Below are positions 21,132 through 38,500 of a stretch of DNA of 64,000 nucleotides, one piece after another (the stretch's first letter is position 1; each line of letters begins with the position of its first letter). This DNA is from Clostridia bacterium (GTDB lineage: Bacteria; Bacillota; Clostridia; Oscillospirales; Acutalibacteraceae). Under the pieces are notes generated by a model that was not told where the DNA came from, did not search any database, and worked only from the letters and a program-made list of their open reading frames with translations. The stretch spans positions 42,664-106,663 of the forward strand of contig JAFULG010000002.1 in assembly GCA_017473435.1 (NCBI GenBank). The letters are read 5' to 3'. The position numbers and the translations under genes were made by a program.

Positions 21132-21142
21132 GGAGAAAAGCT

Positions 21143-21865
21143 ATGGCAGATTTTATTTCAAAAAGCTTGCTTAAAGAAAAAGCGGATGAATTTGGTGTTG
21201 AGCTCGATGAAAAGGCACTTGACCGCTTTGATATTTACGCAAGACTTCTTGTAGATTGGAACGAAAAAATCAACCTTACTGCAATCACCGAGCCTGATGA
21301 GATTGTTATAAAGCATTTTGTGGATTCATTAACTTTATTTTCTTCAATCAATATTCCCAAAGGCGCAAAGGTAATTGATGTAGGTACAGGTGCAGGCTTT
21401 CCCGGTGTTGCAATGCTTATAGCCAGACCTGACCTTGATATTACCCTTATGGACAGTACAAACAAAAAGCTTAATGTAATCAGAGACATCCTCGAAAATA
21501 TGGACCTTGAGGCAAATGTTGTGCATAAGCGTGCAGAGGAAGCGGGTCAGAGCAAGGATTTCAGGGAGCAGTATGATTTTGCGACAGCAAGAGCAGTCTC
21601 AAATCTTCGAGATCTTTCAGAGTTTTGTCTGCCCTTTGTAAAGGTAGGAGGTACTTTCATTTCAATGAAAAGTGCAAAGGCTGATGAAGAGATTGAAGAG
21701 GCTAAAAAGGCAATTTCAGTTCTTGGCGGTAAAATCAGAGAAAAGAAAACCTTTTCGCTTGATAATGCAGGGGAGAGAACAATAATTTTAATCGAAAAGT
21801 TTTCGTCAACACCCGGCAAATATCCAAGACCTTCGGCAAAAATGGTTAAGAATCCTATAAGATAA
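21143..21865 (+). CDS. rsmG: 16S rRNA (guanine527-N7)-methyltransferase RsmG (GidB)
   Basis: 240 aa with SAM-binding DVGTGAGFPG, directly downstream of mnmG. Confidence 0.95.
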   Translation: MADFISKSLLKEKADEFGVELDEKALDRFDIYARLLVDWNEKINLTAITEPDEIVIKHFVDSLTLFSSINIPKGAKVIDVGTGAGFPGVAMLIARPDLDITLMDSTNKKLNVIRDILENMDLEANVVHKRAEEAGQSKDFREQYDFATARAVSNLRDLSEFCLPFVKVGGTFISMKSAKADEEIEEAKKAISVLGGKIREKKTFSLDNAGERTIILIEKFSSTPGKYPRPSAKMVKNPIR

Positions 21866-21916
21866 TGCCGAAAAAGATAAGCTATAATAAAATAATGTAA
21901 AACGGTTTTTATGGAC

Positions 21917-21965
21917 AACCTTTCCTTACTGTGGTATTCTTTACAGCAAGGAAAGGTTTTTTGTT
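21917..21965 (+). terminator. Rho-independent terminator candidate after rsmG
   Basis: Arms aacctttccttactgt and acagcaaggaaaggtt pair at 15 of 16 positions, followed by a T-run at 21957-21962. Confidence 0.6.
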
Positions 21966-21977
21966 TGGAGGTTGTAT

Positions 21978-22820
21978 ATGATAACTGAAAAGCCTAGGTC
22001 GGCAGGACAGGTTTTGCTTATACCCAGTGAGATAATTTATCCCAATCCCAATCAGCCGCGAAGAAGTTTTGATCAGGAGGAGCTTGTAAATCTTGCGATA
22101 AGCATAAGAATGAACGGAATACTTCAGCCGATAACCGTAAGAGAAACGCAAAACGGTTATGAAGTTGTTTCCGGAGAAAGAAGACTAAGAGCGTCGCGAC
22201 TCGCAGGAATGTTATCAGTACCGTGTATTGTTATTGATGTAAACAGCTTTAAGTCAGCGGTATATGCTCTTATTGAAAATCTGCAAAGACAAAATTTAGG
22301 TTATTTTGAAGAAGCAGCAGCGATCGAAAGACTGATGAAGGACTTTGGTCTTTCCCAGGAGGAAGCGGCAAAGCAGCTGGGTAAAGCTCCTTCAACAGTT
22401 TCAAACAAATTGAGACTTTTGTCTTTGCAAAGTGAAGCAAGGAATTTACTTTGTGAGCACGGACTTTCGGAAAGGCACGCCAGAGCTTTATTACGTTTAC
22501 CGGAAGATAAAATATTGCCTGTGCTTAACAAAGTTATTGAAAGAAAGCTTAATGTTACACAAACTGAAGCTTACATAGAAGAGATTCTTTCAGAAAAGCA
22601 GGGAAACAGAACTACAAAAACAATGTTCAGCGATGTTAAAATCTTTCTCAAAACCATTAACCATGCAGTTGAAACAATGAAAAAAGCAGGCATAAAGGCC
22701 GACATCAAAAAAGAGGAGCAAGAAGAAAGCTATGTCTATCATATAAAAATACCTAAAAAGGAAATGTACAAGCCTCCTGTACAAGCTGATGGCAACACCC
22801 AAAGTGGTGATTCCATATAA
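21978..22820 (+). CDS. ParB/Noc-like N-terminal-domain protein (ParB paralog)
   Basis: ParB-box GERRLRASR and N-terminal IIYPNPNQPRRSFDQEEL. It sits at the position between rsmG and soj that noc occupies in Bacilli. The start is ATG 21978, with ggagg 6 nt upstream. Confidence 0.8.
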   Translation: MITEKPRSAGQVLLIPSEIIYPNPNQPRRSFDQEELVNLAISIRMNGILQPITVRETQNGYEVVSGERRLRASRLAGMLSVPCIVIDVNSFKSAVYALIENLQRQNLGYFEEAAAIERLMKDFGLSQEEAAKQLGKAPSTVSNKLRLLSLQSEARNLLCEHGLSERHARALLRLPEDKILPVLNKVIERKLNVTQTEAYIEEILSEKQGNRTTKTMFSDVKIFLKTINHAVETMKKAGIKADIKKEEQEESYVYHIKIPKKEMYKPPVQADGNTQSGDSI

Positions 22821-22853
22821 TCATATCTTTCTCTTTCACACCCCACAATGAGG

Positions 22854-22888
22854 AAAACCGCATCTTTATGGTGCGGTTTTCTTCTTTT
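22854..22888 (+). terminator. Rho-independent terminator candidate
   Basis: Stem aaaaccgca (22854-22862) pairs with tgcggtttt (22872-22880), followed by cttctttt. Confidence 0.6.
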
Positions 22889-22894
22889 CGTAAA

Positions 22895-22910
22895 TGTTTC
22901 ATGTGAAACA
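22895..22910. promoter_or_regulatory. parS centromere-like site
   Basis: TGTTTCATGTGAAACA matches the TGTTNCACGTGAAACA consensus at 15 of 16 positions. It lies in the spacer just upstream of soj-spo0J. Confidence 0.75.
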
Positions 22911-23004
22911 ATTTATAAAAAATATAAAAAGCTCTTTAAAAACTGAATATATTGTGATATAATACTTGTCTAAACAAATATTTCTGATAAGAAAGGGTGA
23001 AACA

Positions 23005-23781
23005 ATGGGTAAAACTATAGCTATTGTTAACCAGAAGGGTGGCGTAGGAAAGACCACGTCTGCGGTAAACCTTGCTGCAGCTATCGGTTATTATGGATAT
23101 AAAGTGTTGCTTGTAGATATGGACCCTCAGGGTAATGCGACAAGCGGACTTGGTATAAATAAAAGAGAAATTGTCAAATCTACCTATGATATGACAGTAG
23201 GGGACACAAAAGCGGCAGAAATACTCAAAACCACACCTTATGCCAATCTTAGTGTGTTGCCTTCAAATATGAATCTTGCCGGTGCAGAGCTTGAGCTGGT
23301 TGATATGGACGACCGACAGGTAAGAATAAAAAATGCACTTGCTCCCCTGAAGGCAGACTATGATTTTATCATAATCGATTGTCCCCCCTCGCTTGGATTG
23401 CTTACGGTTAACGTGCTTTGCGCAAGTGACAGCGTTATTGTTCCGATTCAGTGTGAGTATTATGCTCTTGAAGGATTGTCACAGCTAATGAATACAATCC
23501 GACAGGTAAAAAGACTCTATAATCCTTTAATTGAGCTTGAGGGTGTACTTCTGACGATGTATGACGGCAGACTTAATCTTACTCAGCAGGTAGTAGGGGA
23601 GGTTAAACGCTTCTTTCCGCAGAAGGTATACGGAAGCGTAATTCCCCGTAACGTGCGTCTTTCAGAAGCTCCGTCCTTCGGTAAGCCGGTATATTATTAT
23701 GACAGAGCCTCAAAAGGCAGTACTGCATACGATGAATTTGCGGTTGAATTTCTAAATAAGAATAATAAGAAGGTGAAATAA
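23005..23781 (+). CDS. soj: Chromosome partitioning ATPase ParA/Soj
   Basis: Deviant Walker A KGGVGKTT, IIIDCPPSLG and a ParA-type C-terminus. I prefer ATG 23005 over the track TTG 22966. Confidence 0.95.
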   Translation: MGKTIAIVNQKGGVGKTTSAVNLAAAIGYYGYKVLLVDMDPQGNATSGLGINKREIVKSTYDMTVGDTKAAEILKTTPYANLSVLPSNMNLAGAELELVDMDDRQVRIKNALAPLKADYDFIIIDCPPSLGLLTVNVLCASDSVIVPIQCEYYALEGLSQLMNTIRQVKRLYNPLIELEGVLLTMYDGRLNLTQQVVGEVKRFFPQKVYGSVIPRNVRLSEAPSFGKPVYYYDRASKGSTAYDEFAVEFLNKNNKKVK

Positions 23782-23782
23782 T

Positions 23783-24652
23783 ATGGCAAAAAAACAAAGC
23801 GGTCTTGGAAAAGGTCTTGATGCTCTTTTCCTTGACAATTCGACAACAGACGGTGATAAGCCGTTAAGACTTCCGATTACTGAAATTGAGCCTAACAGAG
23901 ATCAGCCCAGAAAGCATTTTGATGATGAGGCATTGCAGGAGCTTTGTGACAGCATTAAAATTCACGGTGTTATTCAGCCACTTGTTGTAAGACCTATTTC
24001 CGACGGCGGTTATCAGCTTATTGCAGGTGAAAGACGTTGGAGAGCATCCCGTATGGCAGGTCTTACGGAGGTTCCCGTAGTTATAAGGGAAATGGCTGAA
24101 AACGAGACAATGGAAATCGCTTTAATAGAAAATTTACAGCGTGAGGACCTTAATCCCATTGAAGAGGCAGAGGGCTTCCGCGTGCTTATGGACAATTATT
24201 CTCTTACTCAGCAGGAGGCAGCAGAAAGGGTAGGTAAGTCCCGCCCTGCAGTTGCAAATACAATGCGACTTCTCGCCCTTCCCGTAAAAACTCTTGATTA
24301 CGTGAAACAAGGCAAGATTTCCGCCGGTCACGCAAGGGCACTTCTTCCTCTTAACGAGGAAGCAAGAATCAACCTTGTGGCTGATGAAATCATCAGAAAA
24401 GGTCTTTCCGTAAGAGATGTTGAAAAAATGGTAAAGAATATCCTTTCCGACAAAAAGCACAAGGAAAAGGATGAGGAAAAGAAGAAGGAGAAGCGCGATC
24501 CCTTCTATGATGAGTGTGAAATTGCTATCCGCGAGGAGCTTGGCAGAAAGGCCGAAATTCACCTCAAATCCGCAAACAAAGGCACTATTGAAATTGAGTT
24601 CTTCAGCAAGGTAGATCTTCAGTCAATTCTTGAAGCTCTTGCAGGTAACTGA
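23783..24652 (+). CDS. spo0J: Chromosome partitioning protein ParB/Spo0J
   Basis: 289 aa with ParB-box GERRWRASR, an HTH region (LTQQEAAERVGKSRPAVAN) and a C-terminal dimerisation region. Confidence 0.95.
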   Translation: MAKKQSGLGKGLDALFLDNSTTDGDKPLRLPITEIEPNRDQPRKHFDDEALQELCDSIKIHGVIQPLVVRPISDGGYQLIAGERRWRASRMAGLTEVPVVIREMAENETMEIALIENLQREDLNPIEEAEGFRVLMDNYSLTQQEAAERVGKSRPAVANTMRLLALPVKTLDYVKQGKISAGHARALLPLNEEARINLVADEIIRKGLSVRDVEKMVKNILSDKKHKEKDEEKKKEKRDPFYDECEIAIREELGRKAEIHLKSANKGTIEIEFFSKVDLQSILEALAGN

Positions 24653-24674
24653 TATATAAAGGAGAGTAATTAAA

Positions 24675-25943
24675 ATGTTAGATATTAAGCTTATCAGAGA
24701 AAATCCCGAAAAAGTTAAGGCAGCCATGAAAACAAGAAATAAGGATATGGATGCTGTTGTTGACGAAATTCTTGAAATTGATGCTCAGGTAAGAGCAATC
24801 ACACAGAAGGCAGATGCTCTTAAGGCTGAGCAGAACGCAGCAAGCAAAAAGATCCCTCAGATTAAGAAAGAGGGTGGCGATATCAGCGAGATTATGGCTC
24901 GTATGAATGAAATCAAGGAAGAGGTAAAGAGCCTTGATGCTGAAAAGAACGAGCTTGCCGCAAAGCAGAAGACTATGATGTACGAATTCCCCAATGTTCC
25001 TTCAGAAACAACTCCCGTTGGTAAGGATGACAGCGAAAACGTAGAAATCCGCCGTTACGGTGAGCCCAGAAAGTTTGATTTTGAAGCAAAAGCACACTGG
25101 GAAATCGGTGCAGATCTCGGCATTCTTGATCCTGAAACTGCTGCAAAGGTAACAGGTACACGCTTCCATTTCTATAAGGGTCTTGGTGCAAGACTTGAAA
25201 GAGCTATCATCAGCTTTTTCCTTAACACTCACACTGAGCACGGCTACACAGAGGTTTTCCCTCCCTTTATGGTTAACCGTGCATCAATGACCGGTACCGG
25301 TCAGCTTCCCAAGTTTGAAGAAGATGCTTTCAAGCTTACAAACGACTATTTCCTCATTCCTACAGCAGAGGTTCCCGTTACAAATATGTTCAGAGACGAT
25401 ATCCTCGAGGGAGACAAGCTTCCTATGAGCTTCTGTGCTTATTCAGCTTGCTTCCGTGCAGAGGCAGGTTCTGCCGGCAGAGACACAAGAGGTCTTATCC
25501 GTCAGCATCAGTTCAATAAGGTTGAGCTTGTTAAGTTTGTAAAGCCCGAGGAAAGCTATGCTGAGCTTGAAAAGCTTACCAACGATGCAGAAAGAGTGCT
25601 TCAGCTTCTCGGTCTTCCCTACAGAGTTGTTGCACTTACAACCGGTGATATCGGTTTCTCATCGGCAAAGACTTATGATATTGAAGTCTGGATGCCTTCT
25701 TACGGCAGATATGTTGAAATCAGCTCCTGCTCAAACTTCGAGGACTTCCAGGCAAGACGTGCTTCGATCCGTTTTAAGAACGGTCCCAAGGAAAAGGCTC
25801 AGCTTGTACACACACTCAACGGTTCAGGCGTTGCTGTAGGCAGAACAACCGCTGCAATCCTCGAAAACTATCAGAATGAAGACGGAACAGTAACAATTCC
25901 TGAGGTGCTTGTTCCTTATATGGGTACTGATATTATCAAATAA
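24675..25943 (+). CDS. serS: Seryl-tRNA synthetase
   Basis: 422 aa with an N-terminal coiled-coil arm and class II motifs ([21 protein letters not shown]; GSGVAVGRT). Confidence 0.97.
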
Positions 25944-25963
25944 ATTTTAGGGAGGTATTCAGA

Positions 25964-26800
25964 TTGTCAGCAATCACAAAACATAAAGACAATTTTCTAA
26001 AATACCGCTACCTTCTGAAGGAGCTTGTTATAAAGAACATCAAGCTTCAGTACAGAAATTCCGTACTCGGTATGTTCTGGACATTTTTACAGCCCCTTCT
26101 TACAATGGTGGTGCTTGCAGTTGTTTTCTCAAATCTTTTCGGAAAAAATTCGTCACAGGTAGTTAACTATCCTGTATATCTTCTTTCCGGTCGTTTGCTT
26201 TATGAGTTTTTCACCCAGAGTACAAAGCGCGCTATGCGCTCAATCCGTGCAAATTCATCTATTATAAAAAAGGTTTATGTTCCTAAGTATATTTACCCCC
26301 TTTCGGTGGTAATTTCAACCTTTGTAACATTTCTTATCTCCCTTTCCGTTCTTGCGATTGTTATTCTTTTCTTTAACATTCTTAAGAAAAATCCCGTTCC
26401 TGTTACATACAACGTCTTTTATGCAATCATTCCTATTATAATAATGTTTGTTTTCTCTCTCGGCGTAGGTATGTTTCTCGGAACACTCAATGTTTTCTTT
26501 AAGGATATAGAGAACTTTTACGATGTTTTCACCTTGCTTCTGTTCTATCTTACTCCCATTGTTTATACTGTGGACAGACTCGGTTTTCCAAAGGGCTCAT
26601 GGCAGGCACTTATGCTTAAGGCTAATCCTCTTTACGGAATGATTGAAATGTTCCGTGCCGCTGTTATTCACGGCGATAAGTTTATGGCTTATTTCAGTAT
26701 GAACCAGCTCTATTACACGTCAGCGGTAGCTATTGTTACACTTGTATTCGGCTTCATCGTATTTTACAAGAATCAGGATAAATTCATTCTTCACATTTAA
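25964..26800 (+). CDS. ABC-2 type exporter permease (TagG/Wzm-like, cell-surface glycopolymer export)
   Basis: 278 aa with multiple TM helices and the ABC-2 N-terminal signature region (YRNSVLGMFWTFLQPLL). TTG start 25964 has gggagg 8 nt upstream. Confidence 0.85.
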   Translation: MSAITKHKDNFLKYRYLLKELVIKNIKLQYRNSVLGMFWTFLQPLLTMVVLAVVFSNLFGKNSSQVVNYPVYLLSGRLLYEFFTQSTKRAMRSIRANSSIIKKVYVPKYIYPLSVVISTFVTFLISLSVLAIVILFFNILKKNPVPVTYNVFYAIIPIIIMFVFSLGVGMFLGTLNVFFKDIENFYDVFTLLLFYLTPIVYTVDRLGFPKGSWQALMLKANPLYGMIEMFRAAVIHGDKFMAYFSMNQLYYTSAVAIVTLVFGFIVFYKNQDKFILHI

Positions 26801-26814
26801 AGGAGGCGTCAACA

Positions 26815-27558
26815 TTGAAAGAATATGCTATTGAAGTAAATCATGTTAGTATGCTTTTTCATCTTAACAAAGAGCGTGTTGACAATGCCAAGGAATATTT
26901 TGTAAGACTTCTTACCAGAAGACTTACCTTTACTGAATTCTGGGCACTTAAGGATGTATCCTTCAAGATTGAAAAGGGTGACCGTGTAGGAGTTCTCGGC
27001 TTTAACGGAGCCGGTAAAAGTACATTGCTCAAGACTATTGCAGGCGTTCTCAAGCCTACAACAGGCAGTGTCAGGGTCAGCGGTGTAATTGCTCCATTGC
27101 TTGAGCTGGGAGCCGGCTTTGATCCCAATTATTCCGGAGCGGAAAATATTTACCTGTACGGTGCTACAATGGGATTTTCTCGTAAATTCATAGATGAAAA
27201 GTTTGACGAGATTGTTGAATTTTCCGAATTAGAAGAATTTATGGATGCTCCCCTTAAAAGCTACTCTTCAGGTATGAGAAGCCGTCTCGGCTTTGCCATA
27301 GCTACAGCGGTTCAGCCTGACGTGCTCATTCTTGACGAGGTGCTTTCTGTAGGTGACGCTGCTTTCAGGGCAAAGAGTGAACAGCGAGTGCTCGACATGA
27401 TGACAGAGGGTGTTACGGTGCTTTTTGTTTCACATAGCACAGAGTCCGTAAAGCGCATCTGCAATAAGGCAATTATTCTCACCAAGGGTCAGCTTGTTGC
27501 CGAGGGTGAGGTAAATGAAATCTGTGAAATTTACACGGAAATGATAAACGGGCGATGA
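26815..27558 (+). CDS. ABC exporter ATP-binding protein (TagH/Wzt-like, short form)
   Basis: 247 aa with Walker A GFNGAGKSTLLK, signature YSSGMRSRLGFA and Walker B VLILDEVLSVGD. TTG start 26815 has aggagg 8 nt upstream. Confidence 0.9.
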   Translation: MKEYAIEVNHVSMLFHLNKERVDNAKEYFVRLLTRRLTFTEFWALKDVSFKIEKGDRVGVLGFNGAGKSTLLKTIAGVLKPTTGSVRVSGVIAPLLELGAGFDPNYSGAENIYLYGATMGFSRKFIDEKFDEIVEFSELEEFMDAPLKSYSSGMRSRLGFAIATAVQPDVLILDEVLSVGDAAFRAKSEQRVLDMMTEGVTVLFVSHSTESVKRICNKAIILTKGQLVAEGEVNEICEIYTEMINGR

Positions 27559-27590
27559 ATAGCCCCTCAGTTAGATCTTACGGTCTGACA

Positions 27591-27618
27591 GCTCCCCTTT
27601 CAGGGGAGCAATTTTTTT
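27591..27618 (+). terminator. Rho-independent terminator
   Basis: gctcccct-ttc-aggggagc followed by aattttttt. Confidence 0.75.
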
Positions 27619-27749
27619 ACCTCTCCTGAAAGAGAAGGGGGACCACGAAAGCGGTGGAGGGGTCAATGTCAATTTAACCAAAGGCAAATTAACATTTTCG
27701 TCACAAGACACAATTTTTTAATAATTATAAAAGTTTTTAAAGATTGATA

Positions 27750-27779
27750 TTGACTTTATTGATTTTAGAATGATATACT
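27750..27779 (+). promoter_or_regulatory. SigA-type promoter candidate for the 2,406-aa protein gene
   Basis: TTGACT (27750-27755), an 18-nt spacer, then TATACT (27774-27779) with an upstream TG at 27771-27772. This implies a leader of about 195 nt. Confidence 0.5.
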
Positions 27780-27980
27780 GATACTAACTAAAAGTGACTC
27801 AATATGCCTTGTTGCGCCCATTTTGCATTTTACACGGTCAGGTCAGGGACCGGCAAAAGGGTTTATAGGGCAGAAAAAGGGCACATAAGTTTCGTTCAGA
27901 CGGTTAATATTTTAAAGGTCGCAGCTGCGACCTCAAAGCCGTTTTATATAACGACAATTTTTGTTAAGGAGGAAATCTTA

Positions 27981-30900
27981 ATGAAAAATCAATTAAAGAA
28001 AAGTTTATCTTTTGTAATGGCAGTGTTGATGATACTGTCTTGTTGGGTGTGGGTAGCACCGGAGAAGGCTGAGGCGGCCGGTGCGTATACTGTTGTTGTT
28101 ACGACAGGCTCTCAGGGAAATGAGTATCCGAATCCGGCTGAAAATCAGCATTACGTAAATATTTATGACAAAAGCGGAAACTATAAGCAATTTAACTGGG
28201 TAAATGCCCAAGATGGAAAAACCGGCCCGGAAATTTTTGAGGTTGATTATTGGCCTGCAAAAATAGGCTTCCATATTGCTTCTAAAAATGTTGCTGCTGT
28301 TAGGATTACCAATATTTCAATCAACGGTGTGGAGATTTTTGCCGATGCTTATAATATGAAATGTACTGGTGCGGGCACGGATGTGTATGTGGCTCACAAA
28401 GATGTGGTTATCGAAGCCGGCGGCACCCTTGAAAGTTGGACTTTTTCAAATTGGAAAGCACCCTATTTTAAATCTCTCACTGAAATGAGCGCAACAGATG
28501 TAGATGTAGTAAAATATCCTTCAACATCAGTATCAACATCTACCGTAACCGTTACCGGCGGTCTTGACCAGTACGGTGTACTATATGATGGTACAAAGCC
28601 CGGTACAGGCTATACGCATACATTAAAGTATACAACAAATCTTGGCGATATGGTTTCTCTTGATTCCAAGTATGCCAGGATTACAAGTGCTTCAGGAGCA
28701 AGTCCCGTAACAGTAACTGTTTATCCGGAGATTCAGAAGCTTTTTGAAGTTACCGGTTCTACAGAAATTTATCTTGAGTCTTATTATAACAGTGACACAA
28801 AAAGTGTTATACATACACCGATAATGTTACATTTCCCCAGATACTCCGCCTACTTCTATCCTAACGGCGGTACTATCGGTACAAGTAAAACAAATAATAC
28901 CTCCGATGACGCTAAGCCTCTCGAATACGGAAATATTCTTTACGGCGCTTTTATAAAGCAGTTACCCAAATATGCTGACAGAAGTTCAGAGGGTCTTGAG
29001 CTTGACGGATATTACAGCCAGAAATATGAGCCCTCAAGAGCTTTGAAGACTCACTTTGATGAAAAGCTCAAATATGACCCCGATAACTCTAAGATTGATG
29101 ATAAGGGTAATTCACATTGGTATGCAGCCTGGAAAGCAAAGACATATAAAGCTACCTTCAGAGTAAACACAAATATGCTCGGACAGCTTGACGCAAAGCA
29201 CGGCAAGGCCATGCTTGATGAAGGAATGTATGAAAGTGTGGCTGCAATTAACAGTATGCTTGCATCTGCATATGAATCAGCAGATAAGGACGCAATTAAA
29301 TTTGAAAATACTGCTAACTTTGGCCGAGCTCCCGTATTTGAGGATAATGTTTTTGTAGGTTGGAGAATGTTAAAGTCTGACGGTAGCCTTTTAGATCTTC
29401 AGAACGAAGTGATTACCGGCGATGTAGTTTTTGAGGCTGTTTTTGCAACAAGAGATGAAGCGGAAAAGAAATATACAACAACCTTCTATGACGGTAACGG
29501 CGGAATAGCAAAGCAGGAGACTCTTCCTTTCCGTTCTCTTGCAAAAGCTCCCGTAATCGCGGATAAGGAAGCTGATGTTAAGTATACTTATGAGTTTGCA
29601 GGCTGGGCAAAGAATGTAGGAAAAAAATTCTACACAGTTGATGCTGAGGGTAAGGACGAAACAGGAGCTTTCATTCCTTATATGCCTTACGATACAGCCG
29701 AATTTGTTGTAACAGAGGACGCATCCTATGTTCCTGTATTCAGAATGACAAAGATACCCTATAAGGTAACCTTTAATTTCAGAGGAAACATCGGCGAGAA
29801 TTATACAACCCAGTCGGTTGTAGTTGACGGTTACCATTACGGTGATCATATTACTGTACCCGAAACCGTAAAAACAAATTACACTTATAACGGAAAGAGA
29901 TATAATCTTACAGGCTGGAAGCAGGGCCTTAATGAGGTTGATATTGACGAAATTACCGTTACCGGAAATATGTCATTAAACCCCGTTTATGATAATGGCG
30001 CGGATGCTGTTTATACCATCAAATTCTATGATAAGGATAATAATCTTATCGGTGCAGAATATGATGACGAAGGAAACCTTATTAACGCTACTAAATATGA
30101 ATATATTCACAACGCAAGTGTAACCGTACCTGAGATCCCTATAACAATTGAAACCGAAACTTCACGTTATGTATTTGACCGCTGGTCATCAGAAGTTGCT
30201 GTTCAGGCAAAGGCTGATGCGGAATACAAGGCAATTTACGATAAAAAAGATTATGCGGATATCAGCTTTGAAAAAGCTGACGGAACTCCTATTTACAGCA
30301 TGTCAGGTAAAGAAAACAGCCAGTTTGTCGGTGATGTTATACCTGAATATGATGAAGAAACTTACGGCGCTCCCCAAAAGAATGCCGATGAAATCGGTTC
30401 GTATGAGTGGGTAGGTTGGGAAGATCAGAACGGTAATGAGGTTATTCCCGGTACAACAGTGCTTACCGGAAATACCATACTCAGACCTTTATACGAAATA
30501 ACCAAACATAAGTATACAGTTGAATTTGTAATTCCCGGTGAAGAAGGCAACCCGGATTTAGTTGTTTCTAAAGAAACTTATGAATACCGTGACAAGATAA
30601 CCGTTCCTGCTGATGCAGACGTTAAAAAAGAGGCAGATGATTATTATACCTATACTTTCTGGCAGTGGGATCCTGCTGTATCAGAAAACTGTTACGGTAA
30701 CGCAACTTATAGAGCAGTCTTTAAGAAAAAACCTATTTACTATACAGTTAAATGGCTTACAGATGCCAAGAATCTTTACAGAACAACACGAGTTGCATAC
30801 GGTAAAAAAATTCAGCAGACCTCAACACCTGAAACAGAAAGATTAGGTGCTGCTCCTACAGGTTACACCTGGGCGCTGAAGGAATGGATTCGCTGTAATG

Positions 30901-33900
30901 AATACGGTAATGATATTCTTGTAAACGGAGAACAGATTAAGTACAGCCGTGAAACCTTAATGGAAAAAGGTGAGATGTATTTTTATCCCGTTTATGAAGC
31001 AGTTGCCGGAAAGAACGCGGTAACATTCGGTAAAATGGTTGACGGTGAATTTAAGGCAGTAACAACCGAGCAGATTAACTATAACGCTCTTGTAAGCGAT
31101 TATACCCCCGGCGCTCTTGAAGCTGTCGGAATTCCTAAGTCAACAGATGATTACCATTATGTATTCGTTAAGTGGTTACCCGTTGGAGGTGGAGAGCTTG
31201 AGCGGAATGAAAATGGTGAATACATAATTACCGGTCCGGTACAGCTTTATCCGGAATTTGAAATTGAACAGCATACTTTTAAAGCAGGCGAGATTGTTAA
31301 GGCTCCTACTTGTCTTGAAAAAGGTTATGCAGTAAATGAGTGCACATATGAGTATTGTACTATAGAGCCTGGCTATATTGAGCTTGACAGAATCGCTGAC
31401 GAAAGTGCTCCCGAAGGTACAGTTTATATCGGTACAGAAAAGTGGACAATGAATAACTATACTGATGGAATTGACTACAGCGAAGACGAAATGGTTTATG
31501 TTAATGCAGGTTCTTCAACAATCGTAAACGCTGTTGATATCGGTACAAGAGGTAAGAACAATCCTGAAGCAAAGCTTTCAAGAGGTGTCGGTAAGATTGA
31601 ATATGCTGTTGTAAATGTAGATGATATTGAAAATTTTGCAACTTTCAATCCTCATACAGATATATCCGAAGGCTGGACAACAATTTATAATTACGAGAAC
31701 ATTTATAATTCAGTTCTTGAAGCTGTTCTTGCAAATAACGGAAAGAAGTTGTCAGATTATAATAATCTTGAAGATGCTCTCAAGAATAAAATTGACAGCG
31801 AGGTTAAGACTGTTCTTGCCGGATACAATGCTAATGCAACAGGTATCCTTGGCGGACTTAATCTTGAAAACGGCAATGAGTACGTTATCTACCTCAGACT
31901 TTCTGATATCGAAATTAACGGTGACGTAAATATTTCTTATATGAGCACCGGCAGACTTCATTACGGCACTGAGGCAGCTAAAATCACTCTGTCCGGTGAA
32001 GGCTACGGTACAAAGTTCTGTGAAGCGGTTACAATTAAAATAACTGACGATACAGAAGGCTTTGAAGCTTATATTGACGGTGAAAAGCAGAATATTACTG
32101 TAACATCAACAGGTGTAATTTCCGCAACCTTTACTAATAACAAGGTTGGCGTTCACACCTTGACTGTAGTTGATAAGAACGGTAACAAGTCAACAAAGAG
32201 CTTTGAAATCAAGAACGGACACAGCTACAGAAATTATACGGTAGCAGCAACATGTGAAAACGAAGGTTCAAGATATAACCTCTGTACAGTCTGCGGCACA
32301 AAGAATGATGTAGTTGCGCTTCCTGCAAAGGGACACAGCTTCACTGACAACTATACTGAAATTGCTCCCACTTGTATTGTCGACGGTACCAGAACCTATG
32401 TTTGTGACAATAACTGTGGCGAAAAGCTCACAGTTGGTCCTGCTTCCGGTGAAGATGAGCTTAAGGCTGTAGGAATTACTTCCGCTGATACGCTTAAGCA
32501 TCTCTTAGCAACAAAGACACATACCTATGCTAAGGTTCTTGATGATAATGGCAAGGAAACCTCTCAGGATGCATGGGTAATTGATAAGGCTGCTACCTGT
32601 ATGGTTAAAGGTAGTAAGCATAAGGACTGTATTGTCTGCGGCGCACGAGAAATCGAACCTATTGAAAAGGATACTGAAAACGGTCATAAGTTCTACCGTG
32701 CAAGAGTTGAAGACGGCGATGAAGCAACTTGTGTTAAGGACGGTATCAAGTCAGAAACCTGCCGTTACTGCAGTTATGAGAGAACTGTTGATACCATTCC
32801 TGCTCTCGGACATACCGAAGGCGAGTATGTAGTTACACTTGCTCCTACATGTACAACTGAGGGTTCAAAGGTTCTCAAGTGCACAGAATGTGATGCAACT
32901 CTGGGCGAAGCTGTAGTAGTTCCTGCAACAGGTCACAAGCTTGTAGCAAAGGATGTTCCTTTCCAGGGTGAAGGAACTGACACTAAATGGTATCAGATTT
33001 TTGAATGTGTTACCGATGGTTGTGACTATGAGGTAACAAAGGAAGTTGAACACGAGGAAGAGGCAAAGGGTACCGTAATATTCAAGAACGAGGACGCAAC
33101 TGTTGCAACCTTTGCAGATGAGACAGTTGGCGAAACAATACTTGCTTCTGATGTCGCTGTTCCTACAAAGACTTCTGATGTTGACTATAAGTACACATTC
33201 TCACACTGGGCAACAAGAACAGGTGAAGGTACTGAGGAAAGTCCTTATGAATACACGGCTGTTAAGTTCCCCATCACTGTTGAAGAAGGCAGTGCAACAT
33301 ATTATGCTGTATTTGCAAAGAAGAATATCAAGTACACAGTTACATATTATTATGACGATCAGATCACACAGTACAAAAAGGTAGGTTATCTTAATAACGC
33401 TGCTGAGCATAAACTTGAAGAAGGTCCTGAAAAGGCTGCAACAGTTAGCAAGACTTACAAATTTGTCGGTTGGGGCGAAAAGGTTGAGAAGGTTGTAACT
33501 GAAGAAGTAAAAGACGCAGACGGTAATCCTACAACTGTTGAAAAGACTGTTACAGAGATTGTACCTGTTGAAGGTGATACAGTAAAGATCAACGGAAAGA
33601 ATATTGTTCTTTATGCAGTATATGCTGCAAGTGACAGGTGTTACTCAGTTACTTATGCTGACGGTTCGGGCGAATTTATTGAAACCTTCTACGTAAAAGC
33701 AAACACAAAGGCTCGTGCTTGTGCAATAGAGCCTGAAAAGGATGCAGACAGCAAGTATCACTATACCTTCAAGAGCTGGAACAGATCAAATCAGCTCAGC
33801 AATGTTAAGAGCAATATTTATGCATCACCTGAATTCACAGCAGTGAGTCACACCTATCCTGTTGAAAACAGGGTAATCAAAACTGCAGCAACCTGTACAG

Positions 33901-35201
33901 AAAATGCAGTTTACACCTACAAATGCAGTTGCGGACGCAGCTACGATAAGGAAGAACCCGGTTCAGCTATTGGACATAGCTGGGGCGAGGCTAAGTATGA
34001 TGAAACAACAGGCAAGAACACTGTAACCTGTCAGATAGAAGGCTGCGGTGCAACTGAAGTTGATACACGTACATTTACATTCAAGTTCTACCTTGAAGAG
34101 CCTGCTGATGAAAATGCTAAGACTTATGACGATGTAAACAATATTTACTGGGGTTCAACAGTTGATTCTACAAGACTTCCTGCCGATCCTGAAAAGGATG
34201 CTAATGAACAGTATACTTACGAGTTTAAGGGTTGGAAGATTAAGGGCGATGAAACCGGAACTCTCTTAAGCAGTGCAGATATTGCAAAGCTTAAAGTTAC
34301 AAAAGATTATATCTTCGTAGCCGACTTTGATGAAATTGAGCGTGTATTCAAAGTTATATTCGCTTACGAACATTCACGTAAGGCTATTCAGGTTTTAACT
34401 GTGAAATACGGTGAATCCGCTGTATTTACCGAAGCAACTCCTGAAAAGTCAAAGGATACCGATCCCGGCTACAAGCCTAAGCTTAATCACTATACCTTCA
34501 AGGGCTGGTCAGCTGACACATCTTCAATCACCGAAGATCTTATAGTTTATGCTAAATTTGAAGAGGAAGCACATAGCTATACTCTTTCGGATACTATCGG
34601 AGAAGCTACTTGTGAAAAGGGCGCCGGATATGTGTTCACATGTAGCGGTTGCGGTGATTCATATGAAGATACCGGTAAAGCTCTCGGTCATGACCTTAAA
34701 GAGGTTGGTGTAGAAGAAGGCTATATCATTTATAAATGCACAAGATGTGACCATACAGAGAGCAAGCCTGTTGATGCTCCCGAGGAAGATGAAGAAGAAG
34801 TTGTAACAAAGGCAATGGCAACTGTTACTGTTCTTCGCGGCGATGAAAAGGTATCAGGCATTAAGGTTATTATCCAGCCTCTCGGTGAAGATGCACCTGT
34901 AATCGGCACAACAAATGCATACGGTGTTGCAAGCTTCGAAATCGATAAGAGCAAGACTTATGTTGCTTGGGTAGAAATTGAAGGTGAAAAGCTTCCTGTT
35001 TCACTTTCAGTTGGTGCAGACGGTAACATCAGCGGTGTTTACACCATTGAAGTTGCAGACAACAACGGTAATGGCAGCTGTGGCTGTGCATGTCACCGTA
35101 ACAATGTATGGGGCGCTATCTTCAGATTCTTCCATAAGATTATCAAGCTCTTTACAGGAGAATTCAAGTGCTGCGCTAACCCTGATCCCATGTATGGTTA
35201 A
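27981..35201 (+). CDS. Giant secreted or cell-surface protein (2,406 aa) with Listeria-Bacteroides-type repeats, His/Cys modules, a beta-sandwich domain and a Cys-rich C-terminal tail
   Basis: AAGGAGG (27966-27972) lies 8 nt before ATG 27981. The signal peptide is MKNQLKKSLSFVMAVLMILSCWVWVAPEKAEA|AG. At least 14 repeats end in Y-x-[YF]-x-F-x-[GKRQS]-W (YTYEFAGW, YVFDRW, YEWVGW, YTYTFWQW, YHYVFVKW, YKYTFSHW, YKFVGW, YHYTFKSW, YTYEFKGW, HYTFKGW). About 10 H..TC-x2-G-x5-C-x2-C modules are present. The track start 27804 is rejected. Confidence 0.9.
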   Translation: MKNQLKKSLSFVMAVLMILSCWVWVAPEKAEAAGAYTVVVTTGSQGNEYPNPAENQHYVNIYDKSGNYKQFNWVNAQDGKTGPEIFEVDYWPAKIGFHIASKNVAAVRITNISINGVEIFADAYNMKCTGAGTDVYVAHKDVVIEAGGTLESWTFSNWKAPYFKSLTEMSATDVDVVKYPSTSVSTSTVTVTGGLDQYGVLYDGTKPGTGYTHTLKYTTNLGDMVSLDSKYARITSASGASPVTVTVYPEIQKLFEVTGSTEIYLESYYNSDTKSVIHTPIMLHFPRYSAYFYPNGGTIGTSKTNNTSDDAKPLEYGNILYGAFIKQLPKYADRSSEGLELDGYYSQKYEPSRALKTHFDEKLKYDPDNSKIDDKGNSHWYAAWKAKTYKATFRVNTNMLGQLDAKHGKAMLDEGMYESVAAINSMLASAYESADKDAIKFENTANFGRAPVFEDNVFVGWRMLKSDGSLLDLQNEVITGDVVFEAVFATRDEAEKKYTTTFYDGNGGIAKQETLPFRSLAKAPVIADKEADVKYTYEFAGWAKNVGKKFYTVDAEGKDETGAFIPYMPYDTAEFVVTEDASYVPVFRMTKIPYKVTFNFRGNIGENYTTQSVVVDGYHYGDHITVPETVKTNYTYNGKRYNLTGWKQGLNEVDIDEITVTGNMSLNPVYDNGADAVYTIKFYDKDNNLIGAEYDDEGNLINATKYEYIHNASVTVPEIPITIETETSRYVFDRWSSEVAVQAKADAEYKAIYDKKDYADISFEKADGTPIYSMSGKENSQFVGDVIPEYDEETYGAPQKNADEIGSYEWVGWEDQNGNEVIPGTTVLTGNTILRPLYEITKHKYTVEFVIPGEEGNPDLVVSKETYEYRDKITVPADADVKKEADDYYTYTFWQWDPAVSENCYGNATYRAVFKKKPIYYTVKWLTDAKNLYRTTRVAYGKKIQQTSTPETERLGAAPTGYTWALKEWIRCNEYGNDILVNGEQIKYSRETLMEKGEMYFYPVYEAVAGKNAVTFGKMVDGEFKAVTTEQINYNALVSDYTPGALEAVGIPKSTDDYHYVFVKWLPVGGGELERNENGEYIITGPVQLYPEFEIEQHTFKAGEIVKAPTCLEKGYAVNECTYEYCTIEPGYIELDRIADESAPEGTVYIGTEKWTMNNYTDGIDYSEDEMVYVNAGSSTIVNAVDIGTRGKNNPEAKLSRGVGKIEYAVVNVDDIENFATFNPHTDISEGWTTIYNYENIYNSVLEAVLANNGKKLSDYNNLEDALKNKIDSEVKTVLAGYNANATGILGGLNLENGNEYVIYLRLSDIEINGDVNISYMSTGRLHYGTEAAKITLSGEGYGTKFCEAVTIKITDDTEGFEAYIDGEKQNITVTSTGVISATFTNNKVGVHTLTVVDKNGNKSTKSFEIKNGHSYRNYTVAATCENEGSRYNLCTVCGTKNDVVALPAKGHSFTDNYTEIAPTCIVDGTRTYVCDNNCGEKLTVGPASGEDELKAVGITSADTLKHLLATKTHTYAKVLDDNGKETSQDAWVIDKAATCMVKGSKHKDCIVCGAREIEPIEKDTENGHKFYRARVEDGDEATCVKDGIKSETCRYCSYERTVDTIPALGHTEGEYVVTLAPTCTTEGSKVLKCTECDATLGEAVVVPATGHKLVAKDVPFQGEGTDTKWYQIFECVTDGCDYEVTKEVEHEEEAKGTVIFKNEDATVATFADETVGETILASDVAVPTKTSDVDYKYTFSHWATRTGEGTEESPYEYTAVKFPITVEEGSATYYAVFAKKNIKYTVTYYYDDQITQYKKVGYLNNAAEHKLEEGPEKAATVSKTYKFVGWGEKVEKVVTEEVKDADGNPTTVEKTVTEIVPVEGDTVKINGKNIVLYAVYAASDRCYSVTYADGSGEFIETFYVKANTKARACAIEPEKDADSKYHYTFKSWNRSNQLSNVKSNIYASPEFTAVSHTYPVENRVIKTAATCTENAVYTYKCSCGRSYDKEEPGSAIGHSWGEAKYDETTGKNTVTCQIEGCGATEVDTRTFTFKFYLEEPADENAKTYDDVNNIYWGSTVDSTRLPADPEKDANEQYTYEFKGWKIKGDETGTLLSSADIAKLKVTKDYIFVADFDEIERVFKVIFAYEHSRKAIQVLTVKYGESAVFTEATPEKSKDTDPGYKPKLNHYTFKGWSADTSSITEDLIVYAKFEEEAHSYTLSDTIGEATCEKGAGYVFTCSGCGDSYEDTGKALGHDLKEVGVEEGYIIYKCTRCDHTESKPVDAPEEDEEEVVTKAMATVTVLRGDEKVSGIKVIIQPLGEDAPVIGTTNAYGVASFEIDKSKTYVAWVEIEGEKLPVSLSVGADGNISGVYTIEVADNNGNGSCGCACHRNNVWGAIFRFFHKIIKLFTGEFKCCANPDPMYG

Positions 35202-35220
35202 AATACAAAGTTAATCCTGA

Positions 35221-35256
35221 ACAGAGACTCCCGTTAAAGGAGTCTCTGTTTTTTCT
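35221..35256 (+). terminator. Rho-independent terminator
   Basis: Stem acagagactcc (35221-35231) pairs with ggagtctctgt (35239-35249) around a 7-nt loop, followed by tttttt. Confidence 0.8.
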
Positions 35257-35427
35257 TTGCAGAACATATTGTGTCTGTAGAAATTTGAAACACTATATAT
35301 GATTATTATATTTTTCTGTGCAAATATAATGAGAAAAAAGAAATAAAAACGCAGCAAGGAAAACTTAACAAATAAAAAAAGCTATATATATGCAAAATGT
35401 AGAATTAAAAAAAAATTAAAAAATATA

Positions 35428-35456
35428 TTGAAAATACTGACTTTAAATGATATACT
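35428..35456 (+). promoter_or_regulatory. SigA-type promoter candidate for the giant ORF
   Basis: TTGAAA (35428-35433), a 17-nt spacer, then TATACT (35451-35456) with an upstream TG at 35448-35449. An A-tract-rich UP-like region lies upstream. This implies a leader of about 127 nt. Confidence 0.55.
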
Positions 35457-35590
35457 TACGATAGTTATAGGTGTCTCTATGGGCGTTTTGCACCCTTTTT
35501 TAGGGAAAATCACTAAAAATCGTGCTTTTTTCCATAGAAAATCCTATTTTCAGCAATATATACAATCTTTCATTTAAGGAGGAAAATTTT

Positions 35591-38500
35591 ATGAAAGTTG
35601 GTAAAAAAGCGTTAAGTCTGCTTCTGGCCGTGATTATGCTCATGTCCAGCGTATCAGTGTCTTTCAGCGTTTTTGCTGCTGAAGGTGACATTGATTATGC
35701 ATACAGCATTCTCTCAACGTACTTTAAAGAACTCATGGTTGCTATTGACAGAAGCGAGGGAGCAATAGCAAAGGCAGGAGGAGCGGATAAGGCAGATTAT
35801 TCCGATCCTGCTTTTGATAGTGTGCCCGTCAAGGATGGCAGCAAATGGGTTATTAGACGAGACACTATAAACGGAGGTTGGGTTGCTGTTTCTCGAGCTG
35901 TGTCATACTATGCTGAAAACACAGTTGCAAGAAACAAAACTTACAACATGCTTGTTGACGATATGCTTGATGAATTACAAGCAGTGTCAGCAACGTTCCC
36001 TGACGGTCAGACTATCCAGGATTATGAAAAAATCCTTGGTTACTATCGTTTTGGTGACACCTCAGAAGGAGAGACATTCGGTACACAGGCATCGGTAACT
36101 CTTCAGATTGGTCATGGATTTGATCTTCTTGCATGGGATAGTGTTGCTGATATTAAAGCTGACCAGACATATTCTACAGCTGTACTTAAGTTCACCCCCA
36201 AAGGTGAGCTTGCTACCGGTTACAGCCTTAAGTCTGCTGAGGATATAAGCTTTACCTCAACAGATTATATTGAGGTTGAAGATAACTATGCAACTGATCT
36301 TAAGACAATTAAGGGTGTTCTTGAATGGTGTGTAGGTAACACTAAGGTTCAGCCTGAGGACTGGACTCTTGATAGCGGAACCTTCAAAACCTGGTTTGCT
36401 GCAGACACTCTTACTGTAGATCAGCTTGGTCAGATTACAAAGCTTCTTGCTTTATTTGATATGACAATGGGAATCGCAGGTCTCGGTTATACACCGGCTG
36501 AAATCTGGGATCACTATGTTGCGCCTGAAACAGGTATCAACAAAACATATACAGAAACCAAAGCCTGGTATGAAACCTCAGGTGCTCGTGCAGAGGCATA
36601 CTCAAGAGCAATAGCTTATAAAGCAGAGCTTGACACTCTTATGGCTACCCCTCTTGAAGGAAAGAAAGCAGCAGAACTTAATGCTGTCAAAGAAGCGATA
36701 GAGGCTGTTATTCAGGAAATGAATTATGATCAGTTCTCTTCACTCATATACGAAATTATCAATGAGCTTGCAGAAGATTATATCGGTGAAGCAACAAGCA
36801 CAGTAGATACTTATACTAAGAATCTTGGCATTAAAGTAGGCCAAGCTTACGCTGTTGAGGAATTGTCCGATAATATACTTACTAGCGGTGTATTGGGTAG
36901 TACATTTATTATTGCTGATAAGCTTGCCGAGCTTGCTGCTGCAGCTGACACACTGCAGACTATTGATGATCTTACAAAGGGTAAGACAGATGATGAGCTT
37001 AAGGATTTTGTATGGGAAGAAACACAGGCATATAAGGATAATGTTAACTGGCTTAGTGCTGCTACAGTTCTCTTGACTTTAATTGATAGCTATGTTATTT
37101 CCAATGCCGGTTTTGATGATCTTAAGGAAACAACTACCGCTTCCGGTAATGCTGTTACAAAAGAGAATTATGACAAGGTTAACGGTAAGCTGTCTGTAGT
37201 TGCTCTTGACATCTACGGTTCAAATTATTATGAACAGAAGTCTAAGATGGACACCATTATCAGCAAGACAATTCTTGCCGGTAAGGGTTATAATGCTATT
37301 TTTGAGCTTTCAAAGGAATTTGAAACATATTATACCGCAGCTCTTGATTTGAGCAAAGACACAACGATGGAAGATGTTTACAATACCGTATATCCCAACG
37401 GTATTGATCAGTATGCCGATTTTATACATGAGATGAAGGCTGCTGTTGCCGAAAGATTCTACAATCAGATGCTGACCATCGAAAACTACTTTAAGGATGG
37501 CGGTAAGGTTACATATTATAACTTTGAATCTATTATTGCAAGAGCTGAAGGTACATGGTTTGAAACCGGTTCCAAAAAAGATAACAGCGGCAATATGGTA
37601 ATATACTCAATTATAGGTAACTACCTTCTCGGCGGTGAAGAATACGGCATTGACTATGTAGCTGAAACCGGCGATTATACAATAAAGCAGCTTGAGGATA
37701 TGTATAATAAGGTCTTTGGTGTCGGCGGTTATTATACAAAGGCTTTGCAGTTCAAAGATGGTCTTCAGGCTCTTAAGAATCTTGCTTATGATACGAGCAA
37801 GGTTCGTGAAACTGAGCGCGATAAGAAAATTCTTGCTTACATTCTTAAAGCTGAACGTGTAAAGGAATCTCAGTATGGTTGGGAATCTTGCCTCGGCAGT
37901 GAATTCTCTGTTGACGAAATCAAGAAGTATGTAAGTGAGATTGAGCTTGCTCTCGATGCAGACGGTCTTGTTGAATATGATGGAGAAATCATCACAACAG
38001 GAAGTATTGAAAAGCTTATGACTGCAGCAGTTGAGGATCTTGACAGAATTCTTCTTTCAGATGACCTTGGTACACTTCTTAACGACCTTACTGCTAAGCA
38101 GAACGAAGAAACCGGTGAAACCACGGGCTTCCTTGGCGTGTGGAGCCGTGACTATACATTTAAGAATCCGGGTGGCGGAACAACATCGGTAAAGGCCGGT
38201 GACGAATGTAAGAACCTTCGTGAATTCCTTATCAACCTTATCGTTGATCTTCTTTGGGGCGGTTCACTTCAGACAACTCTCTTCACAGCACTTAACGGTG
38301 CTGTTGGTCCTGCTTGTTACAATATGGCAGCGCAATCAGCAACTGACCTTAAAGTAGCAAAGAGAGACCTTTGGTACTTCCTTCCCCAGATTCTTCATAT
38401 GGGTCTTCCCACAATGCCCCATGACTATGTTCAGAACTGGACGAACCCCGTAACCGGTGATACTAATAAAGAGATCAGTAAAATTTCTGATTGGACAATT

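Follow-up and report, generated by a model that had tools for sequence, protein, structure and literature searches.

In the Listeria monocytogenes surface protein InlB, one B-repeat (family Flg_new, PF09479, TIGR02543; PDB 2Y5P) lies between the leucine-rich repeat (LRR) region and the GW modules by which the protein binds the cell surface. Stalk-type Gram-positive adhesins and pilins, such as SpaC, BcpA and the B domains of SdrD, combine a variable N-terminal head and a stalk of repeated beta domains with C-terminal attachment to the cell, where sortase links an LPXTG motif to peptidoglycan. In Escherichia coli, the exported enzyme PBP5 attaches to the outer face of the cytoplasmic membrane through an amphipathic helix at its terminus, and Staphylococcus aureus Ebh is a giant alpha-helical protein that spans the wall. 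Bacteria of the Acutalibacteraceae and of related Oscillospirales are common inhabitants of the human and ruminant gut but are uncultured, and we know of no work on how they display proteins at their surface. Here we describe a 64,000-nucleotide stretch of DNA from an Acutalibacteraceae bacterium (the window; contig JAFULG010000002.1, forward-strand positions 42,664 to 106,663), in which a gene for a 2,406-residue secreted protein, called gene 1 below, stands directly upstream of a giant open reading frame (ORF). Positions are those of the window, and all features of the pair lie on its forward (+) strand.

The immunoglobulin A (IgA) protease of Thomasclavelia ramosa has a stalk arranged as ZBD1-BB8-ZBD2 (PDB 9QA6). 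ZBD1 and ZBD2, themselves only predicted and not resolved by experiment, are three-stranded subdomains in which either two His and two Cys or three Cys and one His make up putative structural zinc sites; flexible linkers join them, and catalysis does not require them (PMC12237041). The protease showed no disulfides, and its authors reported no close structural homologue of the ZBDs (PMC12237041). That large proteins of gut Clostridia carry Listeria-Bacteroides repeats has been noted in general terms in a preprint on giant genes (10.1101/2023.11.21.568195).

The gene 1 protein is a long chain of small beta domains, comprising 14 diverged InlB-type B-repeats (9 + 5) and about 11 Cys modules. On balance we favour the view that it is a long surface fibre, anchored by its tail and carrying a variable N-terminal head, that acts with the giant protein. 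Its repeats resemble the InlB B-repeat in length (~70-100 residues) and in the elements YxVxF, a P-x-K segment, Y-x-F-x-G-W and l-Y-A-v-F; they differ in an extra E-K-x-A-D-x-x-Y-T-Y segment and long insertions, and are too diverged for the Pfam threshold. InlB has a single repeat and attaches through GW modules, whereas the gene 1 protein has 14 repeats and no GW module. Like SpaC, BcpA and SdrD it combines a variable N-terminal head with a repeated-beta stalk and, we presume, C-terminal attachment, and Foldseek matches its C-terminal sandwich to stalk-type adhesins and pilins with CnaB or transthyretin-like domains; in contrast to them it has no LPXTG motif and ends in an amphipathic helix flanked by Cys and His. 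The hydrophobic moment of this helix is comparable to or above that of PBP5; PBP5-type helices are not known to have flanking Cys/His clusters or strong sequence conservation. The body domains of the gene 1 protein are all of known or recently described kinds. In the libraries and papers that we searched, we found no record of the fixed 2,400-residue architecture, of its pairing with a 10,000-residue gene, of the Cys/His amphipathic tail or of the conserved leaders described below.

Conservation at the two ends of the gene 1 protein

A database search with the gene 1 protein returned 156 proteins. Most have 2,200-2,900 residues and are collinear with the query over 78-100% of its length at 24-48% identity, and those that are named are called 'InlB B-repeat-containing protein' and come from Acutalibacteraceae, Ruminococcus sp. 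or Clostridia metagenome-assembled genomes (MAGs). Conservation within this family is very uneven. In an alignment of 107 members, identity is ~20-50% over the body, ~70% in the signal peptide and 76% in the last 26 residues, the signal peptide and the C-terminal tail being the most conserved parts of the family. The most variable part is the N-terminal region (residues 33-285; 28077-28835), the putative distal head, in which residues 41-280 show mostly 6-25% identity per 20-residue block, with block 181-200 at 40%. No sequence match to this region was found in Pfam, NCBIfam or the PDB.

The open frame of gene 1 runs from 27804 to 35201, and the 2,406-residue secreted protein starts at ATG 27981, which is preceded by AAGGAGG at 27966-27972, and opens with MKNQLKKSLSFVMAVLMILSCWVWVAPEKAEA. 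The gene call in a public protein collection (P0001, listed as 100% identical, differing at residue 1277) also has 2,406 residues, and the same N-terminal peptide opens all 120 of the 120 listed homologues; the start at ATG 27981, proposed in an earlier note on this DNA together with a strong ribosome-binding site and a signal peptide, is therefore right. The mechanically called ORF begins at ATG 27804, 59 codons upstream of the real start, and the in-frame extension (27804-27980), situated in the conserved leader, belongs to the protein of no homologue.

The signal peptide (residues 1-32; 27981-28076) has an A-x-A site at AEA. Its synonymous codons vary freely across the family, and selection therefore acts on the peptide; this also rules out RNA-level constraint as the cause of its conservation. 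The sequence ILSC at residues 18-21 loosely fits a lipobox, and a lipoprotein anchor is conceivable; its Cys is replaced by Ala in homologues P0071, P0111, P0119 and P0203, and a hydrophobic WVWVAP segment and the A-x-A site come after it. Cleavage probably occurs after AEA.

The C-terminal tail (residues 2367-2406; 35079-35198), defined from the family alignment and a structural model, consists of CxCxCH, an amphipathic helix (residues 2376-2392) and CC-x2-PD. Its consensus is CxCxCH-x4-WGxIFRFFHKIIKLFTG-x3-CC-x2-PD, in which the residues C, C, C, H, W, R, F, G, C and C are invariant, and it is present in 119 of the 120 listed homologues. The modelled helix has block-mean pLDDT (predicted local distance difference test) values of 84-87, a hydrophobic moment of 0.61 and a mean hydrophobicity of 0.41; R, H, K and K line a single face of it. 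The pattern [LIS]P.[TAS]G, which covers LPXTG-like motifs, is absent from the whole gene 1 protein, and Pfam scans of the whole protein and of its parts found no SLH, LysM, choline- or cell-wall-binding repeat or GW module.

When a profile of the tail was run against 1.84 billion representative proteins, only 137 matched at E <= 0.001, and in each of the 105 new matches that bear CxCxCH the motif starts 33-56 residues before the C-terminus. The stronger matches are the gene 1 family and its fragments. The weaker ones carry a variant, CxCxCH..GFIYKIxRFFWKLFK..CxCG-x2-HY, on secreted Clostridia proteins of 360-3,900 residues (P0189-P0232). Ten variant-tail proteins were scanned and yielded BspA-type LRRs, transglutaminase-like domains and Flg_new or Flg_new_2; in 3 of the ten a CarboxypepD_reg domain stands directly before the tail, as in the gene 1 protein. 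The profile that returned them was tuned to the CC-type tail; a database search with a profile of the variant tail returned six tiny fragments only. Neither tail type matches any Pfam or NCBIfam family at E <= 10, the sorting-signal models PEP-CTERM, GlyGly-CTERM and Firmicu-CTERM included. On these observations together, the tail looks like a general C-terminal attachment element, and its variants on unrelated secreted proteins fit a general anchoring module.

A stalk of small beta domains

Internal repeats were found by BLAST of 100-residue windows against the whole gene 1 protein, which gave many matches at ~30% identity. An iterated hidden Markov model (HMM) recovered 12 copies at E = 1e-14 to 1e-24, and the standard domain register adds two diverged units for a total of 14. 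Nine of these (U1-U9) occupy residues 286-1096 (28836-31268) and five occupy residues 1695-2196, as U10-U12 (residues 1695-1957; 33063-33851) and U13-U14 (residues 2030-2196; 34068-34568). The earlier note had counted about nine repeats followed by five more, in agreement with this register; it also had each repeat end in Y-x-Y-x-F-x-G-W, and we find the strict motif in only 7 units and in the middle of the domain.

The whole gene 1 protein gave a weak BiPBP_C match alone in Pfam, with no Flg_new, and nothing at E <= 1 in NCBIfam. When single units were compared with Flg_new, 3 of 10 matched, with 16.7-17.9 bits where the cut-off is 27. The Flg_new scores of four full-length orthologues, at positions homologous to units of the gene 1 protein, are 27.6-64.7 bits. 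A profile of the 14 units searched against the PDB placed InlB in all of the top six positions (best 2y5p, E = 0.002), with profile positions 3-82 aligned to chain residues 5-73, the whole domain. Alignment of the unit profile to the InlB B-repeat by hhalign gave 94% probability over the C-terminal 40 columns. We conclude from these comparisons that the repeat units are diverged B-repeats. Assignment to the InlB class, made in the earlier note with PF09479-type models named as the check, was nearly overturned on that check by the subthreshold scores of the gene 1 protein itself; it is upheld by the orthologues that pass the threshold, the profile match to InlB and hhalign.

The gene 1 protein has 42 Cys residues, which save for a few scattered ones are grouped as H-x12-C-x9-C-x2-C-x12-G-H plus shorter C-x2-4-C units. 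Module M0 (residues 1097-1137; 31269-31391), a member of module alignment A5 whose profile matches ZBD1/ZBD2, follows the first block of B-repeats. Five full modules and one partial one, with C-x9-C-x2-C then G-H, fill residues 1413-1692 (32217-33056), as identified by motif and profile. Modules M6 and M6b (residues 1957-2029; 33849-34067), identified by motif and module alignment, and modules M7 and M7b (residues 2197-2263; 34569-34769) are interleaved with the later repeats. In a model of residues 2195-2406, M7 and M7b are three-stranded beta units like the ZBDs (block-mean pLDDT 94-97), and across 26 homologues their residues H, C, C, C, H, C and C, the candidate zinc ligands, are invariant.

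A profile of 8 Cys modules had one strong match in the PDB, 9qa6_A (E = 3.6e-10, three stretches), which is the T. ramosa IgA protease; the matching regions are ZBD1 and ZBD2. The two proteins have in common the motifs H-x-F, A-T-C-T-x-x-G and C-x2-C-G, small three-stranded beta subdomains with predicted Cys3His or Cys2His2 sites, a spacer region, and secretion by a gut Firmicute. The IgA protease belongs to the M64 metalloproteases and carries an SPQTG sortase signal and a transmembrane helix, whereas the gene 1 protein has neither a protease domain nor a sortase signal. By analogy, the Cys modules of the gene 1 protein may bind structural zinc. Their link to the IgA protease ZBDs shows this putative zinc fold to be a widespread stalk element.

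Between M0 and the main block of Cys modules lies the central region (residues 1138-1412; 31392-32216). An AlphaFold2 model of residues 1096-1460 (mean pLDDT 85, predicted template modelling score 0.74) contains a beta-sandwich, into which a helical segment is inserted, and a second immunoglobulin-like (Ig-like) domain. Foldseek matched the region only to chains of Ig-like or macroglobulin-like (MG-like) domains, among them the Deinococcus HPI S-layer protein, complement C3, alpha-2-macroglobulin, GhpA and SiiE, and in the 100-residue window comparison the second domain resembles the C-terminal sandwich. On this model the central region is a structural module, a pair of Ig-like domains. The earlier note had described a unique region of about 300 residues between Cys modules at 31360-32210; its position agrees with ours, and it resolves into two Ig-like domains in place of a single unique one. 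The Ig-like fold, as seen by AlphaFold2 and Foldseek, also rules out an enzyme role for this region. Pfam and NCBIfam scans of the whole protein and of its parts found no catalytic family anywhere in it.

After M7b comes an acidic linker, VDAPEEDEEEVVT (34770-34808; pLDDT 65, gap-rich in the family alignment), and then a transthyretin-like beta-sandwich of the CarboxypepD_reg / CnaB class (residues 2277-2358; 34809-35054), assigned from the model, Foldseek and orthologue scores. The model has 8 strands with block-mean pLDDT 93-98. Its Foldseek matches were the beta subunit of pyrogallol transhydroxylase (4v4c_B, E = 1.6e-4), CnaB-type pilins, 5-hydroxyisourate hydrolase and CBM41. At the homologous position, three of four orthologues match PF13620 with 35.9-43 bits (cut-off 32.3), the fourth reaching 26.2; in the gene 1 protein the sandwich has no PF13620 match even at E <= 10. 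The carboxypeptidase-regulatory-like look attributed to this domain is thus right as a fold class, by model, Foldseek and 3 of 4 orthologues. The Cys modules, the linker, the sandwich and the Cys-rich tail were all found where the earlier note had placed them.

The giant partner and the function of the pair

The giant gene (35591-64000), identified from its ORF and repeats, starts at ATG 35591 behind AAGGAGG and has no stop codon up to base 64000, which gives more than 9,470 codons open to the window end. On a longer contig, where the gene 1 homologue is 100% identical, the full product has 10,697 residues. Leu and Ala are abundant in the protein, which has a signal peptide and contains at least 12 diverged copies of an alpha-rich unit of ~550-600 residues, with the recurring motifs GGxGYNYAIIPLLEA and NLxAPV. 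Pfam found no match in 9,470 residues of the ORF, and no FIVAR or GA modules, and a large protein database searched with 1,200 residues returned four fragments only and no full-length protein. A C-terminal fragment of a giant homologue (P0121) ends in an amphipathic helix, NWFQRLIQAIRNFFAKIFRFGR, without Cys, and a more distant relative ends in a transmembrane helix. The giant is like Ebh in its size of ~10,000 residues, its signal peptide, its repetitive alpha-rich body and its C-terminal membrane-associating element (for the giant, in homologues); unlike Ebh it has the ~550-600-residue unit, and no sequence or Pfam relation connects the two.

Gene 1 and the giant gene occur together in other genomes. 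On all four metagenome contigs with gene 1 homologues (100, 41, 31 and 26% identity), a co-oriented giant gene stands directly downstream, with products of 10,697, 10,243, 10,207 and 9,342 residues. A scan of one genome per species found 33 gene 1 loci, every one of them in a MAG of an uncultured gut bacterium; the hosts are humans, goats, sheep and roe deer. Twenty-seven of these had at least 2 kb of downstream sequence and were testable by tblastn with the first 3,000 residues of the giant; 25 of the 27 have a giant homologue downstream on the same strand, at a distance of 2.5 and 6.4 kb in loci L023 and L029. In the reverse direction, a metagenome scan with the giant N-terminus found six loci, and all four with enough upstream sequence carry a tail-bearing gene 1 homologue, which ends ~400-530 nucleotides (nt) upstream of the giant start codon. 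Across loci the spacer is mostly 390-500 nt, and the pair is retained while the upstream genes differ. Co-occurrence in both directions (4/4 contigs, 25/27 genomes, 4/4 reverse loci) supports the link to the giant ORF that the earlier note had suggested.

Four observations underlie our reading of the locus: the domain composition, the polarity of its conservation, the place of the tail at the terminus together with its spread, and the pairing of the two genes. In the reading we favour, gene 1 would encode a fibre, elongated and non-enzymatic, on the surface of a monoderm gut Clostridia bacterium of the Acutalibacteraceae / Oscillospirales group. The protein would be exported by Sec and probably cut after AEA. 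Its stalk would comprise about 30 small beta domains (14 B-repeats, ~11 zinc-type Cys modules, Ig-like domains and one transthyretin-like sandwich), and the variable N-terminal 250 residues would form a distal head that contacts the environment. Attachment to the cell would fall to the tail: its helix, which is amphipathic, basic and aromatic, would lie in the outer face of the cytoplasmic membrane, and the flanking CxCxCH and CC groups would probably clamp the helix with metal. The protein may cooperate with the ~10,000-residue exported, alpha-rich giant in forming an adhesive apparatus or a coat on the cell surface. What we infer here is attachment to the membrane, the way the protein is oriented and any part in adhesion, and several points weigh against these. 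The N-terminal region has no recognised fold, and an enzymatic or toxic head is possible. The near-invariance of FRFFHKIIK exceeds the need of a lipid-binding helix and points to specific protein recognition. In loci L035 and L037 the giant gene is not directly downstream of a tail-bearing gene 1 homologue. The C-terminal helix of the giant is known from a homologue only, the C-terminus of this organism's giant lying beyond the sequence seen, and the carriers are all uncultured MAGs.

The main rival to tail anchoring is docking to a partner or to an undescribed sorting enzyme. The tail would then be, in place of a membrane anchor, a recognition peptide that docks to the giant, or the substrate signal of a sorting or modifying enzyme (compare LPXTG and sortase), and attachment would be protein-to-protein or covalent. 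The strong conservation of the tail, extreme beside a body that is only 25-48% identical, leaves room for a specific protein partner; the signal peptide is likewise conserved at the peptide level, which suggests dedicated machinery, and the CC-x2-PD subtype is nearly confined to the gene 1 family, whose members are paired with the giant. We nevertheless consider docking or sorting unlikely, since many secreted but unrelated proteins (360-3,900 residues) bear variant tails, no third gene such as a sortase-like enzyme is conserved in the ~3-4 kb upstream, and the tail has neither the transmembrane-helix-plus-basic-end layout of known sorting signals nor a match to an NCBIfam sorting-signal model. 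More improbable still is release of the gene 1 protein as an extracellular matrix or aggregation scaffold, with the tail as a metal-binding cap or oligomerisation element. It would fit the absence of a classical wall or membrane anchor and the behaviour of the related IgA protease, which is largely in the culture supernatant despite its anchor (PMC12237041), and the five Cys and the one His of the tail, all invariant, could make up a metal knot of their own. The helix, however, is strongly amphipathic with aromatic and basic faces, as in surface-seeking helices, and the tail is strictly terminal, stands in several proteins directly after the same sandwich and looks like a base module. That the two genes are neighbours only through inherited gene order near the replication origin, with no functional relation, we regard as very improbable. 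Both genes have a promoter-like site of their own and are separated by a terminator-like hairpin, and the window pair stands beside gidA, gidB, parB/parA and serS, in a region of stable gene order; yet the pair persists beside different upstream genes (transposase, response regulator or RF-1), its adjacency holds down to 26-30% protein identity and is found when searching from either gene, and the spacer of ~390-500 nt is maintained in most loci.

The locus is a conserved and easily recognised pair of very large exported proteins, which probably shapes the surface of the cell and the way it meets mucus, food particles, other microbes or phages. Should the tail prove to be an attachment signal, monoderm bacteria would have, beyond the known means of keeping proteins at the envelope, a route that does not depend on sortase, and surface proteomes would become predictable from metagenomes.

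Transcription units and gene neighbourhood

A consensus scan found a promoter-like site for gene 1 at 27750-27779 (TTGACT, 18 nt, TG-extended TATACT), whose hexamers are kept in 16 of 18 aligned loci (exceptions L033 and L036). It is followed by a 5' leader of ~200 nt (27780-27980) that ends in the AAGGAGG ribosome-binding site and contains invariant blocks, as seen in an alignment of 17 leaders, including GATACTAACTAAAAGTG and ACGGTCAGGTCAGGGAC. Promoter and leader together (27750-27980, and in loci L004-L038) are conserved at the nucleotide level with a mean column identity of 74% over 17 loci; the proteins encoded by the leader-aligned species are only 26-48% identical. A structured, riboswitch-like element is unsupported by RNAalifold, which gave a weak consensus structure and one hairpin with one compensatory pair, and Rfam had no match across window positions 27400-35700.

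A terminator-like hairpin with a 13-bp stem and a T-run follows gene 1 at 35219-35251, where shuffled sequences lead one to expect 0.1 such sites, and a comparable hairpin and T-run lie 30-70 nt past the gene 1 stop codon in 23 of 27 related loci. The promoter and terminator ascribed to gene 1 in the earlier note thus hold at the level of consensus and are reinforced by their conservation in other genomes. The giant gene has its own promoter-like site, TTGAAA-17-TG-TATACT, with a nearly invariant leader (35428-35590; also in 18 related loci). Transcription is predicted to begin near 27786 for gene 1 and near 35463 for the giant gene. The blocks of the giant leader, ATAGTTATAGGTGTCTCTATGGGC..TTGCACCCTTTTTTAGGG..ATAGGGAATCCTATT..TTTAAGGAGGAAAATTTTATG, differ in sequence from the gene 1 leader, and Rfam gave no match to them. 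A factor that transcription of a 32-kb gene requires may load onto this leader. With their own promoters, the hairpin between them and their persistent adjacency, gene 1 and the giant are thus separate transcription units held together in evolution.

A broader proposal, which we find possible but doubtful, joins these elements. The tail (CxCxCH, a basic and aromatic amphipathic helix, and CC or CxCG-x2-HY) might be an undescribed envelope attachment or sorting signal of Oscillospirales, possibly stabilised by metal and accompanied in the gene 1 family by the unusually conserved signal peptide. It might serve a conserved two-gene giant surface apparatus (2,400 + 10,000 residues) whose long transcripts would be controlled through dedicated conserved 5' leaders, for example by the loading of a processivity or antitermination factor.

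The neighbours within ~3-4 kb upstream of gene 1 vary: 9 loci, the window among them, have an ABC transporter there, 6 have an IS200-type transposase and 5 have an Rce1-like protease. This variation rules out a conserved third gene within that span. The IS200-type (Y1_Tnp) transposase is directly upstream in L004 (2363-2827), L006 (6725-7237 and 8800-9597), L008, L033, L034 and L036, and the gene for the Rce1-like (CPBP) intramembrane protease lies upstream in L004, L015, L016, L019 and L021. Ordinary-sized genes follow gene 1 in L035 (7600-17596, on the opposite strand) and in L037 (8340-13985). In the window, positions 19257-27558 hold gidA, gidB, a parB-like gene, parA, parB and serS, followed by two ABC-2 transporter genes immediately before gene 1, as identified by Pfam on an identical contig. 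The gene pair looks as if it lies in the replication-origin region, and ORFs further upstream have the lengths expected of dnaA, dnaN, recF, gyrB and gyrA.

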